Source of the DNA: an uncultured Pseudomonadota bacterium
Lineage (GTDB): Bacteria; Pseudomonadota; Alphaproteobacteria; RF32; CAG-239
Reading direction: 5' to 3'
Length of the DNA: 33,605 bases
Assembly: GCA_949283275.1 (NCBI GenBank)
Contig: CASDRW010000085.1
Span: 1-33,605, forward strand
A program made the position numbers and the translations under genes. Position 1 is the first letter of the stretch. The number at the start of each line of letters is the position of its first letter. The notes under the pieces are model-generated. The model had not been told where the DNA came from, searched no databases, and saw only the letters and a list, made by a program, of their open reading frames with translations. This document shows positions 5,785 to 22,737 of this stretch, one piece after another.

Positions 5785-7008
5785 GTGTTAAATATTATCT
5801 GGGCCGGATTTTTTATCTTTGCAATAGTGTCGGCAATATGGCAATCATTGGCCGGCAACTGGGATGTCTGGCCTAAAATAACCGAAAGTTTGTTTGCCAG
5901 TGCCGATAGCGGATTTAAGATTGCGCTTAATCTTACCGGTGTTTTATGCTTTTGGCTTGGATGTCTTAAAATTGCCGAAAAATCAGGATTGACCGATTTG
6001 TTGGCTAAAGCTTTGTATCCTTTGTTTTATAAAATTATGCCCGATGTGCCTAAAAAATCGCCGGCTTTTGGCTCTATGGTGATGAATATGGCGGCCAATA
6101 TCTTGGGCCTTGATAATGCGGCAACCCCTATGGGGCTTAAAGCAATGGAGCAATTGCAACAAGTTAACCCACACAAAGACCAGGCTTCAAATGCGATGAT
6201 TTTATTTATGGTGATTAACTCATCCTCGGTAACGCTTATTCCGATTACGATTTTGATGTATCGTTATCAGATGGGATCGGTTAATCCGGCTGCGGTATTT
6301 ATCCCTATTTTGCTGGCTACTTCCATATCTACACTTACGGGTTTTTTGGCCACCGTATGTTGGCAAAGAATAAATATATTTAATCGGGTGGTGATGGCCT
6401 ATCTTGGGTGTGGAGTGGCTTTAATTGCCGCTATTGCCTGGGGATTTGCCTTAATGGATGTACAAACCAGAACCCAGGTTTCTTATATTGCAAGCAATGT
6501 TATTTTAGCCTCTTTGGCGGTCGGGTTTATAATTTCCGGACTGGCCCGAAAACTAAATATTTATGAATTATTTATCGACGGGGCAAAAGAGGGATTTAAA
6601 ATTGCGGTGCAAATTATACCTTATTTGGTGGCGATGCTTGCGGCAATAGGAGTATTCAGAGCATCGGGCGGGCTTGATTATATCTGCTCGGCTTTGGGTT
6701 TATTGTTTGAAAAAATGGGACTTAACACCGATTTTGTGGCCGCTTTGCCTACCGCTTTGATGAAACCGTTATCGGGCAGCGGCGCAAGAGCCATGATGCT
6801 TGATACTTTTCAAGCTTATGGCGTGGACAGTTTTGCCGGGTTTACGGCGTCAATCATCCAGGGTTCTACCGAAACGACTTTTTATGTGTTGGCGGTTTAT
6901 TTCGGAGCGGTCAAAATAAGCAAAACAAAAGCGGCGCTTCCGTTGGCTTTGATTGCCGATGCGGCCGGAATAATATCTGCCATATGTTTGGCTTATTTAT
7001 TTTATTGA
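5785..7008 (+). CDS. Fused SpmA/SpmB nucleoside-recognition (Gate) membrane protein
   Basis: AANILGLDNAATPMGLKAM (SpmA half), KPLSGSGA and QGSTETTFYVLAVYFG (SpmB half). Many TM helices. GTG start with GGGGAG RBS. Confidence 0.9.
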   Translation: MLNIIWAGFFIFAIVSAIWQSLAGNWDVWPKITESLFASADSGFKIALNLTGVLCFWLGCLKIAEKSGLTDLLAKALYPLFYKIMPDVPKKSPAFGSMVMNMAANILGLDNAATPMGLKAMEQLQQVNPHKDQASNAMILFMVINSSSVTLIPITILMYRYQMGSVNPAAVFIPILLATSISTLTGFLATVCWQRINIFNRVVMAYLGCGVALIAAIAWGFALMDVQTRTQVSYIASNVILASLAVGFIISGLARKLNIYELFIDGAKEGFKIAVQIIPYLVAMLAAIGVFRASGGLDYICSALGLLFEKMGLNTDFVAALPTALMKPLSGSGARAMMLDTFQAYGVDSFAGFTASIIQGSTETTFYVLAVYFGAVKISKTKAALPLALIADAAGIISAICLAYLFY

Positions 7009-13839: not shown

Positions 13840-16800
13840 TTATCTTGACTTATTATTTATAAAAGCGCGCATTTGTGCAGCCTTGGCTTGGTTAAATTGT
13901 TGTTTTAACTGCTCGGTGGTGTACAGCGGCTTTTTAAGATTTTCGGCTGTTGGTTGCAACTTGCCGTCCTCGCCGATTTCAAGCCCGTTTTTAACAAGCT
14001 TTTGGTTGAAGTTCTCAATGAACTTATCCCCGTTAGCAACAGGCTCGCCAATCTCTTTTTGATGCTCAATATGTTGCGCAACAAAATAATCCTTAATTAA
14101 TTGCCTATGTCTATATTCTGCGCCCAACTCATCAACGGCAGTACCATTGGCGCGACAACAAGCCTCGTGTACGGATGTGATATCTTCTTTAGATATTGCA
14201 ATATTTCTAAACTCAATATTACCATTTAATCCACCATCCTCGTTGATACTGTAACTAGGGATAATGTCATCACCATAGTTATAGCCTCTTATCCATCCAC
14301 TTGTTGTAGTTTCATATTCAACTGTAGTAGTTGCTTTTTCAACAACAAGATCTTCGGCTTTAACCGTTGTTTGAGATTCGATTACAATAACCTCAGGAGC
14401 TGCATCCTCGGCTTTGGTCTCAACCGCAGGAGCTACATCCTCGGCTTTGGTCTCAACCTCAGGAGCTTTGGTCTCAACCTCAGGAGCTTTGGGCTCAACC
14501 GCAGGAGCTGCTTTATCAGCAACGGATTCATCGACAACTCGATTGGTATTTCCATTGGCTTCGGCGGTTTTGGCCATTTTTCTTTCTATACCATTTTCAA
14601 GTCTTTCTTTATGGCGGATAAACTTATTATCTTCCACAGTTTTACCAAGATGAGTATTGTTGTTCTCAATCTCTTCGGTTGGAGTTAGATGATAACGGGT
14701 AGTATCTCCCCGCATCTTTTCGGCCAAACTTTGTGCCGTTTCTTTATCCAAGACATACCCTTGTTTGCCGACATAGAAATTTGCCTCACCGGTCTTGGAA
14801 TCAACTTCTACCGTAATGGCATTAGCCCCCTTGCCATATTGGAAAGAAATGGTATCTGCTTCATAGGTAATATTGGGAGTACCAAGCTTTTCAATCGCTT
14901 GGGGATCAATACTTAATGCTACCGGATGTTTAACCTCGACACCGCCAGGCTGACTTATAGCTCCGTCGCTATCTGCCAGTTTAGCGCCTTTTTGCCAGAT
15001 ATGAACTGAACCATCTTTACCTATACGCATAAATTGAGATCCTTCCGGAACTTCGGATGTAACCGCATAATCACTAGCTTGTCCTGAATAGGTGGCGGTA
15101 GCTTTAGAGCCTAATTCTTCCGGTGATTTGAAGTTGATTGCAATATTTCTGATATCTTTTGGTTTATATTCTGCATAAACTTTGATATTGGATTCAACCT
15201 CGGTTATGCTTGAATCTTTAGACATCTCAGGTTCTTGAGGAGCTGCGACAGGTGTTTCTTCAACACGGCCGCCCATTTTCCAATGATTCATATGCCCTTC
15301 ATCGCAATTTTCCCATTGATCGGCCTTTATCATAACATTATCTGTCAAGACCTTATCAGGACCAAGGTAGTCACCTTTATCATCTATCATTGCCAAGGCT
15401 TTATTAATTGCAGCATATTGCTCAGCACTTAATTGCTCACCACAATTCAAAAGATTATTAAGTGCTGTCATTTCTTCTTCATAATGATAGCGTACCGCAC
15501 CTTGGATAGAATTACCTTGAGCGTCGACACGATCTGTCCATGCATCCAATCTTTGATATTTGAACAATATCTCTTCTTTGGTCATATTGCTAAAATTGGC
15601 CATAACCTCATCTGATGACAAATTGGTATACATTCTGTTAAGGTCTTCTGCTGTATACAAACGTTGCAAAAGAGCATATTGAGCTTTGGTAATACCCATG
15701 TCTGCATTATATTCATTAGGAAAGGCATAGGTTTTGGTATCAATAATCTCAGCACCGGTGCCGGCAACTGCGGCTGTACCACCGGTGGCAACGTTTCCAT
15801 CAGTCGGGGCGTGACTTACGCTGTTGGCCGGGTTGTGGAACAAACTATCAGCCGGGTTGCGGAACAAACTATCGACCGGCGTAGTTACTCCTTCTGGTGC
15901 TGCCTCAGCTCGACGTTCAATATAATCAGAAATACCGTTGCCGTTTTTATCTACAAGAGAAACACCTGCTGTACGAACCCCGGTTGTATCAACATTGGAA
16001 TTAACCGTGGTGGTATCGGTTTGGGCTTTGCCCTTGCTGGTCAACCAGCTCCACCATCTTGGAGTGCTTTGATTGCTTGCTGTTGTATCTACCTGATTAT
16101 CGGCTAAATTTGTTGCAGATTGGGTCTTGCTCCGACCGATTAAGCGCTCCAACAGGCTCATCTTTGTGCCGGATGCAGCCGGGGCTTCAACCGAGGATGT
16201 ATCGCTCAAGTCGGTTGCATGACCTGCGGTATGGTTGCCATGGAATAGAGAGCTGAAGAAACCGGCTTCGTTTAATCCTTTTACGGCATCACCTAATGCC
16301 GAACCGGCAACAACGGTCAATAATGTCGTTTTGTCTTTTTTAACATTGTTTTGAGCAGCTTGCAGCTTTTTTTGATAATCAATTGACATTACGCCTTCTT
16401 GGCCTTCTTTTAGCACTTCAGCTTCACGCTTTTGGCTCATTATTAAGGTGCTACCTTTGCCCAAGACCATTACACCCTGGCGTAATAGAGTTTTGCCCCA
16501 GCTACCGGCATTGCCTCCAAAACCAAAGGCTGCCATAATACCACCGGCGGCAACACCCTCTATCGTGCGCGTTATGGCACGACGTCTAAAACCGTCTTCG
16601 GCATAGGTGGCTTTTTTAGCTTCTGCCCAATGAGCTTTGCGATAAGCTTTTCTTGCTTCTTTGTCGGTAATTCCTTTTTGGCGCATCTCGGCTCTGATTT
16701 TGTCATAAACCGGCATTACCCAAGCGTTTACTGCCGTCCAACCGGCATATACTGCCGCACCGGCAGCAATAACGGCTGTAGCGCCGCTGGCGGTTGCCAT

Positions 16801-18108
16801 AGCGGCACCACCAAGTATTGCCATGTTAAGAGCGGCTTTTTTCCAACCGCCTTGTTTGATCATGTTGTCAATAAAGGATCTACTTACGTTCTTAAAGGCA
16901 GTTTTGGCCCTGGTATAAAAAGGAACTTTTTCTTTGGTAATGTTCTTTTGCCCAAAAATACGTTCAATCTTGGCGGTCTCAAGCCCTAGCTGACGCCTGT
17001 CCTCTTCTATCGCCAAGGGGTTGATTTTTAAGTTGCCACTTAAAACATCCTCAATGGCTTGTGACATATCAACACCGTCTTTGTCTTGATAGCTCCAGCC
17101 TTTTTCTTGGTCATAGGTGATGTTGTTTAGCACAATTCCGGCTTCTTTGCTGGTGGAAACACCACAAGCAACAACACTGCGCGTAAAATTGTCATAAATT
17201 TCTTGTTTGTAGGCTTCAAGAAGCGAGTTGACGTCTTTATATTTGAGCGTCATCGCCCTATCTTTTAAGAAATTGTTGGTGGCACGCTGTGAGGCAATGG
17301 TCAACATCATCTCAAGATTGGTTTTTCTTAATCCCTCATCACCGTCAAACTGAATGGTAGCGGCCAAGTCTTTACATTGCTCATAAAGCGGATTTAGCTC
17401 GCCTTTTTCATCATAGACATCAAGCGATTTTATAGCGCTGTCAAGCCTATGGTCGTTGGACATTATCTGCTGACCATCAATCTTGTCCCAGCCCGAAAGC
17501 TCAGCCAAACGAGCAATAAAGGCGTCTTGGGCTTCTTTAGAGACATCATCCAAAGCACCCGACTTTTCGGCTTGGTCAAAGTGGGCAAATTCTGCATCGA
17601 TGATTTCTTCTTTGTTCTCTTTCTTATTGCCTAGGGCTTGTTCAATAGCTGCTTTTTCTTCATTTGCGGCACCTTCAAGGGTTTTGACAGCATCTGTATT
17701 GCCTTCGTTAACTTGTTTGGCTGCCTCCAACAAGGCTTTGCGTTTGAGGCGCGAAATAAGATCGTTTTCCCCTTCAATTATCTCTATTTCTTTACTAACC
17801 GCCTCTTGAATTATTGTTTTTAGGTCGCTATCCTTACCCTCACTTGTGGTAATTTTGATTTGCTCCAAATCTTTGCTATCAATAACTCTGGTATATGCCA
17901 ACAAATCATAAGGATTTGTATCTTCAATAGCTTGAACGGCGTTTTCATCTACCTCGCCTTGAAGCCTTTGTGTCATTATAGCTTTAATCTTTTCAGCTAT
18001 ATCGTCTTTTTTGTTATCTTTAGCGCTAACATAAATCTGATACAAATTAGTTGTATCTTCTGCTTTTAGATTATCTTCATTTTCCCAATCCGAATTCCAA
18101 GCAACCAT
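13840..18108 (-). CDS. Large (1422 aa) hypothetical protein with central Gly/Ala-rich hydrophobic segments and repeats
   Basis: Uninterrupted 4.27-kb ORF with GGGAG RBS, its own candidate promoter and a terminator. No family recognised. Confidence 0.85.
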   Translation of the reverse strand: MVAWNSDWENEDNLKAEDTTNLYQIYVSAKDNKKDDIAEKIKAIMTQRLQGEVDENAVQAIEDTNPYDLLAYTRVIDSKDLEQIKITTSEGKDSDLKTIIQEAVSKEIEIIEGENDLISRLKRKALLEAAKQVNEGNTDAVKTLEGAANEEKAAIEQALGNKKENKEEIIDAEFAHFDQAEKSGALDDVSKEAQDAFIARLAELSGWDKIDGQQIMSNDHRLDSAIKSLDVYDEKGELNPLYEQCKDLAATIQFDGDEGLRKTNLEMMLTIASQRATNNFLKDRAMTLKYKDVNSLLEAYKQEIYDNFTRSVVACGVSTSKEAGIVLNNITYDQEKGWSYQDKDGVDMSQAIEDVLSGNLKINPLAIEEDRRQLGLETAKIERIFGQKNITKEKVPFYTRAKTAFKNVSRSFIDNMIKQGGWKKAALNMAILGGAAMATASGATAVIAAGAAVYAGWTAVNAWVMPVYDKIRAEMRQKGITDKEARKAYRKAHWAEAKKATYAEDGFRRRAITRTIEGVAAGGIMAAFGFGGNAGSWGKTLLRQGVMVLGKGSTLIMSQKREAEVLKEGQEGVMSIDYQKKLQAAQNNVKKDKTTLLTVVAGSALGDAVKGLNEAGFFSSLFHGNHTAGHATDLSDTSSVEAPAASGTKMSLLERLIGRSKTQSATNLADNQVDTTASNQSTPRWWSWLTSKGKAQTDTTTVNSNVDTTGVRTAGVSLVDKNGNGISDYIERRAEAAPEGVTTPVDSLFRNPADSLFHNPANSVSHAPTDGNVATGGTAAVAGTGAEIIDTKTYAFPNEYNADMGITKAQYALLQRLYTAEDLNRMYTNLSSDEVMANFSNMTKEEILFKYQRLDAWTDRVDAQGNSIQGAVRYHYEEEMTALNNLLNCGEQLSAEQYAAINKALAMIDDKGDYLGPDKVLTDNVMIKADQWENCDEGHMNHWKMGGRVEETPVAAPQEPEMSKDSSITEVESNIKVYAEYKPKDIRNIAINFKSPEELGSKATATYSGQASDYAVTSEVPEGSQFMRIGKDGSVHIWQKGAKLADSDGAISQPGGVEVKHPVALSIDPQAIEKLGTPNITYEADTISFQYGKGANAITVEVDSKTGEANFYVGKQGYVLDKETAQSLAEKMRGDTTRYHLTPTEEIENNNTHLGKTVEDNKFIRHKERLENGIERKMAKTAEANGNTNRVVDESVADKAAPAVEPKAPEVETKAPEVETKAEDVAPAVETKAEDAAPEVIVIESQTTVKAEDLVVEKATTTVEYETTTSGWIRGYNYGDDIIPSYSINEDGGLNGNIEFRNIAISKEDITSVHEACCRANGTAVDELGAEYRHRQLIKDYFVAQHIEHQKEIGEPVANGDKFIENFNQKLVKNGLEIGEDGKLQPTAENLKKPLYTTEQLKQQFNQAKAAQMRAFINNKSR
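14389..14509. repeat. In-frame tandem repeats (2 x 33 bp, 2 x 21 bp, plus a partial unit)
   Basis: Units begin AACC(T/G)CAGGAGCT at 14389, 14422, 14455, 14476 and 14497. They encode APAVEPK-APEVETK-APEVETK-AEDVAPAVETK-AEDAAPEV. Confidence 0.92.
15827..15874. repeat. 24-bp tandem duplication in the large ORF
   Basis: GCCGGGTTGTGGAACAAACTATCA / GCCGGGTTGCGGAACAAACTATCG, encoding DSLFRNPA-DSLFHNPA. Confidence 0.9.
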
Positions 18109-18337: not shown

Positions 18338-21300
18338 TTAAGCCACTTTGGCATCATAGCAGATTTTTGCCCCCTCAATATCGCCGTTGGTGCCAGATGA
18401 GCAAGTATTGTTGACTTTAACCGCCAATACTTGCTCGGCAATATAGTCCTTATTTTCGCTCAAGGCTTTGGCCAGCTCTTTATCATCGGTCGAATAGCTA
18501 AGCTCGATCCTGTCGGAGATGTCAAAATCTTTGTCCTTGCGCAGGGTTTGAACCATACGAACAAAATCACGCGCCATACCCTCACGTTTAAGCTCCTCGG
18601 TAACAGATGTGTCCAGCATTACCAAAGCCTTATTATCAGCAAAGGCTTTGGCGGCAACGCCTGACTTCATCTCCAGCCTTACCTCAAACAAATCTGAAGT
18701 TAGCTCATGACCGGAAATCAAGAGTTTGCCACCTTCTTTTAGCTCCCAGTTGCCTTGCTTGTAGGCGGCCATAACAGAGCCCATGTCTTTGCCCAAAGAT
18801 TTGCCCAACAATGGGGTATACAAATAAATCTTTTTGTCGGCATAGCTACTCAAATTGTCGTCAAACTTGACTTCTTTGACATTGAGTTCGTCTTTGATTA
18901 TCTCGCAATAGTCCTTATCAAGCTCTTGACCGACAACAGTTAGCGACCTAAGCGGCAGGCGGTTGCGCAAATTCTTTTCCTCGCGGATAAATTTGGCCGC
19001 CGAACACAAATCTTGCAAGAAATCCATGTCAGATACCAATTTCTCATCAAACTTGATGGCTGCCAAGTTCGGATAATCTACCAAATGCACGGATTCCAAG
19101 CCACTTAGGGTCTTATAGATATACTCGCAGACAAACGGCATTAGAGGTGCGGCAATTTTGCTCAAATTAATCAAAACCGTGTACAAAACATCAAAGGCCA
19201 ACGGCTCGCCCTCCCAAAAACGATCGCGGGTGCGGCGAATATACCAGTTGTTTAGCACTTCAATAAACGAGGAGATGGCATTGCAGGCAATTGCAACATC
19301 ATAGGTTTCAAGCCCTTTTCTTACCACCTCGCTCAAGTTTTTGAGCTTGGAGAGGATATAGTTGTCCATTGCCTCGGTTGAAGAATAGACCTCTTTGGCT
19401 TGATAGCTCTCGGCATTGGCATAAAGAGTGAAGAAATAAAACGCATTCCACAGTGGAATTAGCGCCTCGCGCGAGGCTTTGGCTATCTCTTTGCCCTCTT
19501 TGTCAACCGCCAGGTTGCCGCCTTTTAATACCGGAGATGATACCAAAAACCACCGCAGAGTGTCAGAGCCTATTTTGTCCAAAACCTCGTTCGGGTCAGG
19601 ATAGTTCTTTAGCCTCTTGGAGAGTTTTTGCCCGCCTTCGGCCATCAACAGACCGGTGCAAATACAATTCTTGAACGCCGGCTTGTTGTGCAAAGCAGTT
19701 GACAACACGGTCAAGGTATAAAACCAACCGCGGGTTTGATCCATCGCCTCGACAATGAAATCAGCCGGAAAATGGCTCTCGAACCAAGCCTTGTTTTCAA
19801 ACGGGTAGTGCACCTGCGCATAAGGCATGGACCCACTTTCAAACCAGCAGTCAAACACATCGCCAACTCGGCGCATCATGCTCTTGCCTGTGGGGTCGTC
19901 CGGATTAGGATAGACAACATCATCAATATAGGGTTTATGTAAATCTGAAACCTCAAAACCAGTCTTTTCCTTTATCTCGGCAATGGAGCCAAAAACATCA
20001 ACCCTAGGATACGCCGGATTGTCCGACTTCCAAACCGGAATGGGCGTGCCCCAAAAACGGTTGCGCGAGATTGACCAATCCCTTGCACCCTCAAGCCATT
20101 TGCCAAAACGTCCGTCTTTGATATGCTCAGGAATCCAGTTTATCTCTTGATTGTTTTTGACCATCTCGTCCCTAAAGTCGGTTACTTTGACAAACCACGA
20201 CGACATCGCCTTATAAATCAACGGGGTATCGGTACGCCAACAGAACGGATAAGAGTGGGTATATTGCTCTTTTTTGACCAAAAGGTGATTTTCTTTGAGC
20301 CAAAGCATTATCGGCTCGTTGGTTTCGAAAACTTGTTTGCCCTCGTAATCTGGAACTTCGGCCGTAAACTTGCCGGCCTCGTCCACCGGGCAGACAACCG
20401 GAAAATGCTCGTCATAGGCGCGGCATACATCGAAGTCGTCTTGACCAAAACCCGGGGCAATATGAACCACGCCGGTACCGTCTTCGGTGGAGACAAACTC
20501 GCCTGACAAAACCTTGAAACACCCCTTGTCTTTTAGGTGTTTGAAATAGGGGAACATCGGTTCATAGCTAAGGCCAACCAAATCCTTGCCTTTGAGCGAG
20601 CCAACCTCAACCGCGTGCTCCAATTGTTTTTTATAGCGCGGCAACAAGGCGCGGCCAAGAATATATTTTTGGCCGTCTTCTTCCATGATGACATAGTCAA
20701 TATCCTCGCCAACCGCCAACATCAGGTTTGACGGCAAGGTCCACGGAGTGGTGGTCCAAACCAAAATCTTCATGCCGTTTTCGAGCTTGAACAAAACGGT
20801 GATGGCGTTGTCGGTTTTGTCTTGATAGCCTTGGTTGACCTCAAAGTTGGACAAAGGAGTCTCGGCCGCCCAAGAATAGGGCAAAACACGATAATCCTCA
20901 TAAACCAAACCCTTGTCATAGAGTTGTTTGAAATTGCTGATTACACTTTCCATAAACGGCAAATCCATGGTCTTGTAATCATGGCTGAAATCTACCCAAC
21001 GGCCGATGCGTTTGAACATCTCAACCCAAATGCCGGAGTATTTCAAAACATCGGAGCGGCAGAAATTATTAAACTTTTCGACCCCAAATTGTTCTATCTG
21101 CTTGCGGCCGGATACGCCAAGCTGTTTTTCGGCCGACATTTCGGCAGGCAAACCATGGCAGTCCCAACCCAAGCGGCGCTCAACCTTTTTGCCCATCATA
21201 GTTTGAAAACGGGCAACCACGTCTTTGACATAGGACACCATGATATGCCCATAATGCGGGGTGCCGTTGGCAAACGGAGGACCGTCATAGAACACAAACT

Positions 21301-21424
21301 CGGCGGCACCATCGCGGTTTTTAACCGATTTTTCAAAAGTTTTATCCTCGTCCCAAAATTTGAGGACTTCTTTTTCCAATTCGACAAAGTCAGGCTTTGC
21401 CTTTACATCTGCATAATGTTTCAT
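18338..21424 (-). CDS. ileS: Isoleucine-tRNA ligase, type 2 (eukaryote/archaea-like)
   Basis: FYDGPPFANGTPHYGH, GWDCHGLP, WTTTPWTLPSN, DWSISRNRFWGTPIP, DQTRGWFY, KLSKR. Long C-terminal domain (EGMARDFVRMVQTLRK) and no C-terminal Zn finger. Confidence 0.97.
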   Translation of the reverse strand: MKHYADVKAKPDFVELEKEVLKFWDEDKTFEKSVKNRDGAAEFVFYDGPPFANGTPHYGHIMVSYVKDVVARFQTMMGKKVERRLGWDCHGLPAEMSAEKQLGVSGRKQIEQFGVEKFNNFCRSDVLKYSGIWVEMFKRIGRWVDFSHDYKTMDLPFMESVISNFKQLYDKGLVYEDYRVLPYSWAAETPLSNFEVNQGYQDKTDNAITVLFKLENGMKILVWTTTPWTLPSNLMLAVGEDIDYVIMEEDGQKYILGRALLPRYKKQLEHAVEVGSLKGKDLVGLSYEPMFPYFKHLKDKGCFKVLSGEFVSTEDGTGVVHIAPGFGQDDFDVCRAYDEHFPVVCPVDEAGKFTAEVPDYEGKQVFETNEPIMLWLKENHLLVKKEQYTHSYPFCWRTDTPLIYKAMSSWFVKVTDFRDEMVKNNQEINWIPEHIKDGRFGKWLEGARDWSISRNRFWGTPIPVWKSDNPAYPRVDVFGSIAEIKEKTGFEVSDLHKPYIDDVVYPNPDDPTGKSMMRRVGDVFDCWFESGSMPYAQVHYPFENKAWFESHFPADFIVEAMDQTRGWFYTLTVLSTALHNKPAFKNCICTGLLMAEGGQKLSKRLKNYPDPNEVLDKIGSDTLRWFLVSSPVLKGGNLAVDKEGKEIAKASREALIPLWNAFYFFTLYANAESYQAKEVYSSTEAMDNYILSKLKNLSEVVRKGLETYDVAIACNAISSFIEVLNNWYIRRTRDRFWEGEPLAFDVLYTVLINLSKIAAPLMPFVCEYIYKTLSGLESVHLVDYPNLAAIKFDEKLVSDMDFLQDLCSAAKFIREEKNLRNRLPLRSLTVVGQELDKDYCEIIKDELNVKEVKFDDNLSSYADKKIYLYTPLLGKSLGKDMGSVMAAYKQGNWELKEGGKLLISGHELTSDLFEVRLEMKSGVAAKAFADNKALVMLDTSVTEELKREGMARDFVRMVQTLRKDKDFDISDRIELSYSTDDKELAKALSENKDYIAEQVLAVKVNNTCSSGTNGDIEGAKICYDAKVA

Positions 21425-21493
21425 CTTCTTAAAACACCTTAAATTTTAATTTAAATGATTTGTATTTGAAAAATTTTTGATTGTGATATGTGC

Positions 21494-21526
21494 AAAAAAA
21501 AATAACTAACCCCCTTAGGGGATAAT
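21494..21526 (-). terminator. Putative attenuator terminator in the ileS leader
   Basis: RNA AUUAUCCCC-UAA-GGGGG(U)UAGU followed by UA and U9. The loop is the leader stop codon. Confidence 0.55.
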
Positions 21527-21562
21527 ACGCGAAATAATGGATATGATAAACTGAGCGCACAT
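21515..21562 (-). CDS. Ile-rich leader peptide of ileS (MCAQFIISIISRIIP)
   Basis: ATG TGC GCT CAG TTT ATC ATA TCC ATT ATT TCG CGT ATT ATC CCC TAA: 6 Ile in 15 codons, ending 90 nt upstream of ileS. AAAGG upstream. Confidence 0.8.
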   Translation of the reverse strand: MCAQFIISIISRIIP

Positions 21563-21601
21563 ATTAAACTAAAACCTTTTTGATAACTAACTTAATTATG
21601 G

Positions 21602-21630
21602 AATTTAATACATTAAATATAAGGAGTCAA
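21602..21630 (-). promoter_or_regulatory. Putative sigma70 promoter for leader-ileS
   Basis: TTGACT-17 nt-TAAATT on the minus strand. Confidence 0.55.
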
Positions 21631-21887
21631 TTACATTTTGCAGTAAAAAAAACGTGGTTAAAAAAATAACTTTACAAAATTTTCGCATATTTTGTCATTT
21701 TTTTGTTGAAGTTTATAAAAAATTGTTATATAGCAATAAACAATCAATTAAATATTTTTGTGTCTTATTATGTTGGCAGGCTGTCTATTTTCTTGAAATT
21801 TAAGGAAACGACTAACTCAATATGATAGGGCCTTTTTTTTAACACAAGGGAAAGGGTGCCTGGTCTTTTCCTAAAAACAGAAAAATT

Positions 21888-22256
21888 ATGCCTATATTTG
21901 TAATTTTGGCAGCCTTGTCCGGAATTTGGCTGCTGCTTTTGGCGCTGATGATGCTGACAAAAGTGCATCAGTTGTCAAAAGAAAAAAATTTGCTTAAGGT
22001 TCCCAGAAAGGACCTTGTAGCGTTAGTAAAAAAGCACCGCTTTGGTGCCGTGCCCAATACAATATCCGTCATATTGGCGGTGGTAGCTGTCGCTTTGGCA
22101 GGGTTGCTCATTAACGAACAACTGTTATGGCTGGCTATTTTGCTGCCTTTCATTTGCCTGTTTGTTCGCTGGGTGGTTAAATTATTATTCTTGCTGGTAA
22201 TTGCACTGGTAAGGATGGTAGCCAAAATCTATAAAAAAATGGATGGCTACTGGTAG
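21888..22256 (+). CDS. Hypothetical small membrane protein
   Basis: 122 aa with three or more hydrophobic segments, followed by a terminator. Confidence 0.7.
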   Translation: MPIFVILAALSGIWLLLLALMMLTKVHQLSKEKNLLKVPRKDLVALVKKHRFGAVPNTISVILAVVAVALAGLLINEQLLWLAILLPFICLFVRWVVKLLFLLVIALVRMVAKIYKKMDGYW

Positions 22257-22320: not shown

Positions 22321-22545
22321 TTATTTTATATCTTCCAAGCTAAATTTGAGCTTTTTGCCATAGAACTTCAAAAGGCGCAGGTAGTGGTGAAAGCTCAAGT
22401 TTCCACCTTGCTCCATCAAGGTTATCATGTTCATGGTCAACGGCGTTTGCAAAGCGACATCTTGGAGGCTTAAGCCTTTTTCCTTTCTCAGGGCTATTAG
22501 TTGCGGCGCAAGCTTTTGTCGCATCAGATATTTAAAATTTTGCAT
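22321..22545 (-). CDS. Small XRE/Cro-family helix-turn-helix protein (74 aa)
   Basis: LIALRKEKGLSLQDVA...ITLMEQG HTH_3 pattern. AAGGAG RBS before ATG 22545. Confidence 0.8.
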   Translation of the reverse strand: MQNFKYLMRQKLAPQLIALRKEKGLSLQDVALQTPLTMNMITLMEQGGNLSFHHYLRLLKFYGKKLKFSLEDIK

Positions 22546-22571
22546 TTTTCTTAACTCCTTAATTGTTTGAT

Positions 22572-22737
22572 AAAACAAAACCGCCTTATAAAAACAAGGC
22601 GGGGAGCTGAAAAACTGCTCTAATACAGTCAGGTTTATTCGTCACGCAAAGCATGCTTATTTCACCCACTCCCCATTCAGGAGTTTGTTATTAGAGAGAT
22701 GTTTTTCAGACACCACCAAGGCAACTCGCCTCGGTAA
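22572..22737 (-). ncRNA. Candidate structured leader/antisense RNA (c4-like architecture) ending in a terminator
   Basis: Complementary pairs 22715-22722/22728-22735, 22701-22709/22607-22615, 22689-22696/22618-22625 and 22669-22674/22601-22606. Terminator 22581-22602 followed by UUUUGUUUU. Confidence 0.55.

Follow-up and report, generated by a model that had tools for sequence, protein, structure and literature searches.

Upstream of ileS, the gene for a type-2 isoleucyl-tRNA synthetase (IleRS), in an uncultured alphaproteobacterium (GTDB lineage RF32; CAG-239), is found a conserved RNA leader that probably ties IleRS production to the supply of charged tRNA-Ile. The window, by which is meant here the whole of the stretch of DNA that was analysed, consists of the 33,605 nucleotides (nt) of contig CASDRW010000085.1 (assembly GCA_949283275.1), and both the leader and ileS lie on its minus strand. 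The leader possesses three components, which are a short, isoleucine-rich upstream open reading frame (uORF), a hairpin (P2) which overlaps the end of that uORF, and a long-range helix (P1) which engages the uORF's start. I interpret the combination as a ribosome-mediated attenuator, one in which the translating ribosome itself would act as the antiterminator, and place the probability of this interpretation, as based on comparison of sequences, at roughly 0.55.

The IleRS protein served by itself to locate a first set of relatives, in 41 genomes. Among the loci thereby found in the same genus or the same order, and which retain upstream DNA, 22 of 22 possess a uORF of 13 to 16 codons that ends Ile-Ile-Pro-stop, with that stop codon found in a hairpin loop. 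(Two more of the loci found through IleRS stop at a contig edge and are not part of the 22, and two genomes of the same genus, G012 and G013, are uninformative as they gave no type-2 ileS match.) An earlier, sequence-only reading of this DNA, that is, one made from the letters and without database searches, had anticipated Ile-rich uORFs before orthologous ileS genes, and had named a failure of the uORF to be conserved as something that would count against it. The uORF, as these 22 loci indicate, is conserved.

Wider searches give a similar picture. An exact-pattern scan (the core plus CACATA), taking one genome per species over 185,579 GTDB species, returned 42 matches, with all 42 possessing the uORF and all found 72 to 116 nt upstream of this ileS. 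Of these, 41 are labelled as metagenome-assembled genomes of uncultured Alphaproteobacteria, 'Azospirillum' or proteobacterium, and one is labelled Collinsella. A covariance model of the leader gives exactly one match per genome in 123 of the 151 genomes sampled from the order, i.e., in 17 of 20 genera, and gives a match in 1 of 149 genomes from other families of the class (G214). Examination of the regions upstream of ileS in 28 other alphaproteobacterial families recovered the leader only from this same genome (locus L177). One genome that was tallied, G199, is flagged as unpublished, and nothing claimed here depends upon it. Within the family, there nevertheless is a genus, g21, for which the covariance model matches 0 of 19 genomes. 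In five of those (loci L123 to L127), the type-2 ileS is 73 to 74% identical but leaderless, with another conserved block shared upstream in the leader's place, and this may represent either natural loss or natural replacement of the attenuator.

In all, 112 distinct copies were compiled, but through the motif or the model, so values such as 112 of 112 as provided below are not unbiased frequencies; the unbiased figures for conservation are instead the 22 of 22 (found through IleRS) and the 123 of 151 (found through the covariance model). The gene that is found upstream of the leader varies among relatives and is divergently oriented in three of them (L004 to L006). P2 thus does not serve to terminate some gene located upstream, and the element instead travels with ileS.

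The uORF displays a number of marks of being a coding sequence. All 112 distinct copies end ATT-ATC-CCY-stop, with the Pro codon either CCC or CCT, and the triplet found in the loop is without exception a stop codon (TAG in 87, TAA in 23 and TGA in 2), never a sense codon. Across 109 copies, uORF length shifts by whole codons only, with 13 codons in 5, 14 in 67, 15 in 35 and 16 in 2. Ile makes up 33.8% of the codons of these uORFs versus 8.4% and 5.7% of those in the other two frames and versus 7.7% in long open reading frames (ORFs) genome-wide. Of the 109, 89 have Ile at codon 6 (76 of them as ATA), and half of the copies have Ile at positions -6 and -7, with ATT, ATC and ATA used there alike. 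Codon 4 is TTT in 70 of 109, a T-run at codons 4 and 5 is common, and the encoded peptides share the conserved pattern M-x-x-F-[YF]-I-x-..-I-I-P. The window's own uORF, 90 nt upstream of ileS and on the same strand, carries the three Ile-Ile pairs that had been described for it (ATC-ATA, ATT-ATT and ATT-ATC, so that Ile supplies 6 of 15 codons). These marks fit with selection on a translated, Ile-codon-rich frame, from which I infer that the uORF is translated. There is, in addition, some RNA-level constraint on the uORF, as C is favoured just before the ATA of codon 6 (TAC 18 to TAT 15, versus 1 to 4.5 across the genome). In many relatives (e.g., L144, L145 and L129) there also is a near-repeat, consisting of a T-run plus ACATA, which is seen both inside the uORF, at codons 4 to 7, and at or after the terminator tail.

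P2 is present in both the minimum-free-energy and the centroid folds, and is scored as terminator-like, with two such sites listed versus 0.4 expected in shuffles. In 112 of 112 copies its 5' arm consists of the last three sense codons of the uORF and its loop consists of the stop codon. The core of the hairpin is invariant among relatives, and double changes in P2 number zero. As the hairpin thus is nearly invariant, pair counts neither support nor oppose it. In 88 of 109 copies, a run of at least four Ts follows P2 by no more than 12 nt. The stop codon as terminator loop, along with the nine Ts (T9) that follow in the window, both of which the sequence-only reading had pointed to, stand, and with the loop stop codon conserved as well. 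The covarying hairpin which had been predicted for the terminator is not, by contrast, what is seen, since it is P1 rather than P2 that covaries.

Together, P2 and its T-rich tract look like a weak intrinsic terminator. A weak hint as regards expression is supplied by a metatranscriptome of a relative, which was the sole RNA run found (5% of sampled words, kept as contigs). There, a 157-nt contig bridges the equivalent of positions 21539-21374, that is, the uORF interior, P2, the T-run, the spacer that follows and ileS. This is compatible with a read-through transcript, though also possible is carry-over of DNA into the library, and that this run leaves the sequence before 21539 uncovered is not evidence of a transcript start.

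P1 is the best-supported RNA feature of the element. The complementarity between its arms, ATATGTGC and GCACATAT in the window, had been mentioned only in passing, but the pairing both exists and covaries: double-sided changes are seen at 8 of 11 pairs, the score is matched in 0 of 500 shuffles, and controls in which the arms were slid score far lower. An alignment-free test provides a mean of -10.9 kcal/mol for a leader's own arms versus -7.8 kcal/mol once partners are permuted (none of 2000 permutations is as low) and versus -5.8 kcal/mol for shuffled flanks. P1 always engages the uORF's initiation region, this over 69 distinct start contexts. Its 3' arm, on the other hand, is found at two locations. 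In 59 copies, the window's included, that arm is located 4 to 14 nt past P2 and after the T-run, and for this class the likeliest role for P1 would be to shut off the uORF's start in transcripts that have read through. In the other 50 copies the 3' arm abuts P2, and a CAT located immediately before the T-run pairs with the ATG. With this abutting class the T-run can itself pair with A-rich sequence that precedes the ATG. The 3' strand here is continuous, and the whole resembles a terminator consisting of A-tract, stem and T-tract, though with the uORF body present as a bulge of about 27 to 30 nt. Given a long-range, covarying helix at the start codon, the element is less 'minimal' as an attenuator than had been proposed.

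What has not turned up is an RNA-based antiterminator. The best upstream partner of either arm of P2 is no better than is seen with shuffled sequence (-2.1 versus -2.8 and -5.4 versus -5.3 kcal/mol), and RNAalifold, as applied to 22 leaders, recovers only a 4-bp P2 core (it also missed P1, which had to be counted by hand). The partner search and RNAalifold thus agree with the sequence-only reading's claim that there is no separate antiterminator. A cmscan of positions 21000-22200 against the 4227 families of Rfam 15 provided a best E of at least 4.5, far below gathering thresholds, and no leader (Leu, His, Thr or Trp) or T-box family at the site.

Various candidates for additional structures or signals were considered. 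The repeated GTTAGTTAT is present, as had been described, at both 21591-21583 and 21510-21502, but in the genus alignment it is not conserved and for that reason was rejected as an antiterminator. Pairing of the start codon with a CATA in mid-uORF, as a possible pause hairpin, consists by eye of 4 to 6 A/T-rich pairs and is absent without a TATG context. Pairing of P1's 3' arm with the ileS ribosome-binding site (RBS), i.e., CATCTT with AAGGTG, seems by eye to be possible in some copies though not in those of the window's class. Past P2, the ACATAAAA / TATATAAAA motif was considered as another promoter but, also by eye, was rejected as lacking a usable -35.

How might such a leader work? Transcription would begin approximately 33 nt before a uORF of which one-third of codons specify Ile, and whose body lies between an upper helix, P2 (ATT-ATC-CCY/GGGG(AT)), and a closing helix, P1. 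A leader lacking in a ribosome would fold into P1 plus P2. A ribosome that is awaiting Ile-tRNA at the invariant ATT-ATC, by contrast, would occupy the 5' arm of P2, while one that is awaiting Ile-tRNA at codon 6 would still be covering the start codon and therefore the 5' arm of P1, this if a ribosome's footprint is assumed to extend about 12 nt behind its P site. Either wait would block structure formation, with polymerase thus continuing on into ileS. When Ile-tRNA is plentiful, however, then the ribosome should reach the stop codon of the loop and leave, P2 should fold, and transcription should end at the T-run, with P1 then closing the uORF's start site. Thus viewed, the attenuator reading accounts for the terminal Ile pair, for the early Ile codon, for the stop codon in the loop, for the narrow range of uORF lengths and for P1. 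A direct masking of the terminator's arm, which is the mechanism that had been suggested from the letters, fits with the two invariant terminal Ile codons but not with the Ile of codon 6 nor with those of positions -6 and -7.

A number of considerations weigh against this interpretation, and one of these is timing. Expressome geometry has the A site of a ribosome trailing polymerase by about 25 to 30 nt, and the T-run is located about 25 nt past the uORF's stop codon, so that the uORF should be unfinished at the point when polymerase reaches the T-run. As the ribosome then cannot reach the loop's stop codon in time, the canonical sign, i.e., of Ile hunger giving rise to read-through, needs a pause by the polymerase at or before the T-run, and no pause element was identified. 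Absent such a pause, the opposite sign would result, as read-through would then be favoured by faster translation. P2 also is weak, at approximately -8 to -9 kcal/mol versus stems of 9 to 12 bp for typical terminators of this genome; 21 of 109 copies have either a broken T-run or none in the 12 nt after P2; and in the window's class the 3' arm of P1, since it follows the T-run, is outside of the termination decision. As for initiation, the AAAGG that had been listed is indeed present, at 21579-21575, but as a possible RBS its 14 nt from the ATG is a poor Shine-Dalgarno spacing. In relatives, purine-rich tracts are seen 5 to 10 nt before the uORF's ATG, though no sharp RBS consensus was found across those uORFs. 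Lastly, the single-sequence fold has a z-score of -0.96 versus shuffles, which is not significant, and promoter-like sites number 5 versus 3.3 expected, i.e., near chance. It is upon comparison with relatives that the element is above chance, with the single sequence alone insufficient.

Of the rival explanations, one in favour of which the timing argument speaks is that of the opposite sign, which I consider to be unlikely. Here the leader would be a pyrBI-like coupling sensor, that is, one in which a ribosome which keeps pace with polymerase covers the 5' arm of P2, and in which Ile hunger, by causing the ribosome to lag at early Ile codons (codon 6 along with positions -7 and -6) and thereby allowing P2 to form, lowers ileS transcription. 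The conserved early Ile codons are in fact too far upstream to mask P2, and the failure to identify a pause element is what this explanation expects. It would amount, though, to positive feedback, with less charged tRNA-Ile resulting in less IleRS; it leaves unexplained both the invariant Ile codons in the P2 arm and the retention of P1; and it is contrary to every characterised control of an aminoacyl-tRNA synthetase of which I am aware (the pheST attenuator, T-boxes). Attenuation of pheST and T-boxes of ileS are treated in Seliverstov (2005, PMC1262725). Bearing on geometry and timing, and in favour of the opposite sign, Li et al. (2015, PMC4824070) found that E. coli terminators found right after stop codons are repressed by ribosomes, and also that terminators within the first 100 bp of a gene are efficient. 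Somewhat less probable even than this opposite sign is that the decisive step is instead Rho-dependent termination in the spacer between leader and ileS, or else some post-transcriptional effect of P1 and P2 on RNA stability or ileS translation, with ribosome occupancy of the uORF governing Rho loading or folding. Against a strand-symmetrised intergenic background with 17.8% of each, G and C amount to 5.3% and 14.7% of that spacer over 109 copies, which is depleted in G but not in C, and to 7.2% and 19.3% of the uORF interior; a rho gene is present (688 bits); P2 is weak, with an imperfect T-run in about a fifth of copies; and the Pro-stop ending of the uORF recalls that of tnaC. Nevertheless, P2 plus its T-rich tract represent the most conserved RNA feature and are ordinary for an intrinsic terminator, while a ribosome found in the uORF covers no part of the spacer. 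The strongly G-depleted spacer might serve for the loading of Rho, or its depletion may do no more than keep the spacer, or the ileS RBS, unstructured.

Two further rivals dispense with attenuation altogether, and both seem improbable. Were P1 and P2 to form a structured RNA, whether as a protein- or ligand-binding leader or as a trans-acting small RNA, then the open frame would be incidental. In favour of such an RNA are the covariation of P1, the RNA-level bias for C before ATA, and the occurrence of the T-run plus ACATA within the uORF as well as after P2. An incidental frame should not, however, change in length only by whole codons, display always a stop codon in its loop (and this of three kinds), undergo synonymous changes at Ile and Pro, or show a fourfold enrichment in Ile that is limited to a single frame; nor is there a match to an Rfam family. 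More improbable still is that the uORF encodes a small, hydrophobic peptide that is itself functional, with the hairpin merely that peptide's terminator. The conserved peptide pattern is consistent with this, and leader peptides possessing functions in trans do exist, peTrpL being an example (PMC7298713). Yet the uORF always precedes ileS by 72 to 123 nt on the same strand, with no evident promoter between, conservation is strongest at the level of codons and RNA (ATT-ATC-CCY being invariant), and 13 to 16 residues are too few for most known functions.

Returning to the ribosome-mediated attenuator, there is a more specific but also more tentative version of that reading, in which the terminator may be described as 'ribosome-caged'. 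The whole of the uORF, from this perspective, would be a bulge, approximately one ribosome long, within a terminator stem that is split in two. The lower stem would consist of the start codon paired with the CAT before the T-run, as is seen directly in the 50 abutting copies; the last three codons would form the upper stem; and the stop codon would be the loop. One ribosome located anywhere in the uORF would then be an antiterminator. There would be in addition two tuned sensors, i.e., Ile codon 6, as the last waiting position from which the start codon still is covered, and the ATT-ATC pair of the upper stem. If so, then an amino acid would here be sensed by a minimal architecture of a distinct kind, through which a synthetase is controlled in what appears to be an isoleucine auxotroph.

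Attenuation by leader peptides is textbook material, with known forms using competing hairpins and found mostly with biosynthetic operons of well-studied Proteobacteria. As with those classical attenuators (trp, his, leu, thr and ilv, as well as pheST), the ileS leader has on the same strand a short uORF that is enriched in the cognate codon, including as tandem runs, then what looks like an intrinsic terminator, and then the target gene; as with pheST, that target is an aminoacyl-tRNA synthetase. Unlike with classical attenuators, the ileS leader does not possess mutually exclusive hairpins (1:2, 2:3 and 3:4). Instead, one of its two helices encloses the other (1:4 around 2:3) and both may be present at once, it lacks an antiterminator, which the classical systems have, its stop codon is found in the terminator loop, and it matches no leader family of Rfam. 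In E. coli pyrBI and pyrE, by comparison, it is the leader frame that enters the terminator, with the ribosome itself blocking the hairpin and no RNA antiterminator involved, and an overlap of leader frame with terminator hairpin is just what is seen in 112 of 112 ileS leaders. The pyrBI signal, though, is polymerase pausing that depends on uridine triphosphate rather than stalling at specific codons, and pyrBI displays neither cognate-codon enrichment nor a helix that closes on the start codon. The ileS leader would thus resemble pyrBI in terms of direct masking by a ribosome and differs from it in its enrichment for Ile codons and in its P1 closing helix. It may be viewed, by analogy, as acting like a leader-peptide attenuator that is combined with pyrBI-type direct masking, a mechanism that is here partly resolved.

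With tnaC, a short leader likewise ends Pro-stop, and a ribosome that is held at the leader's end prevents downstream termination. There, however, it is free amino acid that is sensed, via the nascent chain, and what is acted upon is Rho. The ileS leader shares the Pro-stop ending, but its codon enrichment points instead to the sensing of tRNA. T-box leaders of ileS, as found in Firmicutes and Actinobacteria (for the latter, PMC1262725), share with the present leader the gene, the signal of tRNA-Ile charging and the 5' location, but T-boxes bind tRNA directly and are untranslated, and no T-box matches the ileS leader. Of other synthetases, Seliverstov (2005, PMC1262725) cites pheST as a case of attenuation, and Naville & Gautheret (2010, PMC2965389) describe His-leader peptides before hisS paralogues. 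Literature was searched for ileS and isoleucyl-tRNA synthetase along with alphaproteobacterial synthetase leader peptides, and yielded as related only an unexplained 'ileS leader' coding sequence (CDS) of Caulobacter crescentus. This, CCNA_03934, is a small CDS before ileS that by ribosome profiling is translated, and which serves in Schrader (2014, PMC4117421) as a control only, with neither sequence nor mechanism stated where it is mentioned. What it shares with the present leader is that it is a small CDS positioned before ileS in an alphaproteobacterium.

There may be, in another alphaproteobacterial order, a second and more classical Ile leader for ileS. In a single genome, G236 (L195/L199, contig C25), an Ile-rich uORF, MKYLKINSVIIIKI and then stop, is followed by a 7-bp G/C hairpin plus T7, and a type-2 ileS that is 57% identical starts approximately 76 nt after the uORF's stop codon. 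The sequence of that leader is unrelated to the present one, and its stop codon is located before the terminator rather than within it. Extra hairpins also are found between uORF and terminator, and it is because of these that the G236 leader looks more classical.

The genome that supplied the window (G000; 1.44 Mb) is 97.6% complete, and at that completeness neither ilvC nor ilvD was found, which suggests isoleucine (branched-chain amino-acid) auxotrophy and which makes ileS the obvious Ile-responsive target. Screens of this genome, in which downstream genes were judged from their first residues only, identified no other comparable residue-rich leader among 184 terminator-like sites upstream of genes, nor anything comparable among 80 residue-rich uORFs when the requirement for a terminator was dropped. 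The ileS leader indeed ranks first genome-wide among residue-rich uORFs that end at terminators. A separate observation from contig C95 (minus strand) is of the tail of a small ORF, MLWWWWDILYKL, with four consecutive Trp codons. This ORF, which may be the end of a longer one, ends 5 nt before a 9-bp terminator-like hairpin (script coordinates 6845-6867) that is itself located 90 nt upstream of a gene.

The leader supplies an example of a probable attenuator that is lineage-wide in uncultured gut Alphaproteobacteria, and an unusual one in that it is the synthetase itself that would be controlled, in that an antiterminator is absent, and in that the uORF is nested between a terminator hairpin and a covarying, start-closing helix. 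Should the reading be correct, then no switch other than a ribosome is needed, and the result is a compact, portable sensor of Ile-tRNA, approximately 110 nt in length. The question that is sharpened is that of how such short leaders manage to synchronise ribosome and polymerase.

The features of the leader are located as follows, with every element that the sequence-only reading had placed, including its promoter-like pair, found on the minus strand and just where it had put them.

Table 1. Elements of the ileS leader, in order of transcription, by position within the window.
Feature	Position	Strand	Description
Promoter -35, TTGACT	21630-21625	minus	Promoter scan lists the pair TTGACT-17-TAAATT
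Promoter -10, TAAATT	21607-21602	minus	Inside TGTATTAAATT (21612-21602); 17-nt spacer from -35
Promoter-like pair as a whole	21602..21630	minus	
5' leader, promoter to uORF		minus	About 33 nt
AAAGG, possible RBS	21575..21579	minus	14 nt from uORF ATG
P1 5' arm, ATATGTGC	21557..21564	minus	Includes uORF start codon; complementary to 21493-21486
uORF, MCAQFIISIISRIIP	21515..21562	minus	15 codons plus TAA; ATG at 21562, TAA at 21517-21515
uORF Ile codons	21547-21542, 21538-21533, 21526-21521	minus	
uORF Pro codon	21520-21518	minus	Followed by stop, 21517-21515
P2 hairpin	21505..21526	minus	ATTATCCCC (21526-21518), TAA loop, GGGGGTTAGT (21514-21505)
P2 3' arm	21514-21505	minus	Reads GGGGG(T)TAGT; pairs with codons ATT-ATC-CCC
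T9 tract	21494..21502	minus	After P2
P1 3' arm, GCACATAT	21486..21493	minus	Just past T9; complementary to 21564-21557
G-poor spacer	21441..21485	minus	45 nt, A/T-rich, C-containing; no G in the window
ileS RBS, AAGGTG	21440-21435	minus	
RBS plus type-2 ileS gene	18338..21440	minus	ileS ATG at 21424

Upstream of the uORF, the genus alignment displays two conserved blocks, TTGACTC and TGTATTA. The product of ileS is 1028 amino acids (aa) long, is of type 2, being MupA/MupB-like over its full length, and matches TIGR00392 with 881 bits (cut-off 621). Downstream of ileS by 230 nt, and on the same strand, is an ORF of 1422 aa (13840-18108, minus strand), for which no NCBIfam or Pfam match was found at the thresholds used and which thus is a large orphan protein. 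Upstream of the leader region, at 22321-22578 (minus strand), is encoded an 85-aa helix-turn-helix (HTH_3) protein that displays a weak match to an antitoxin-type family.

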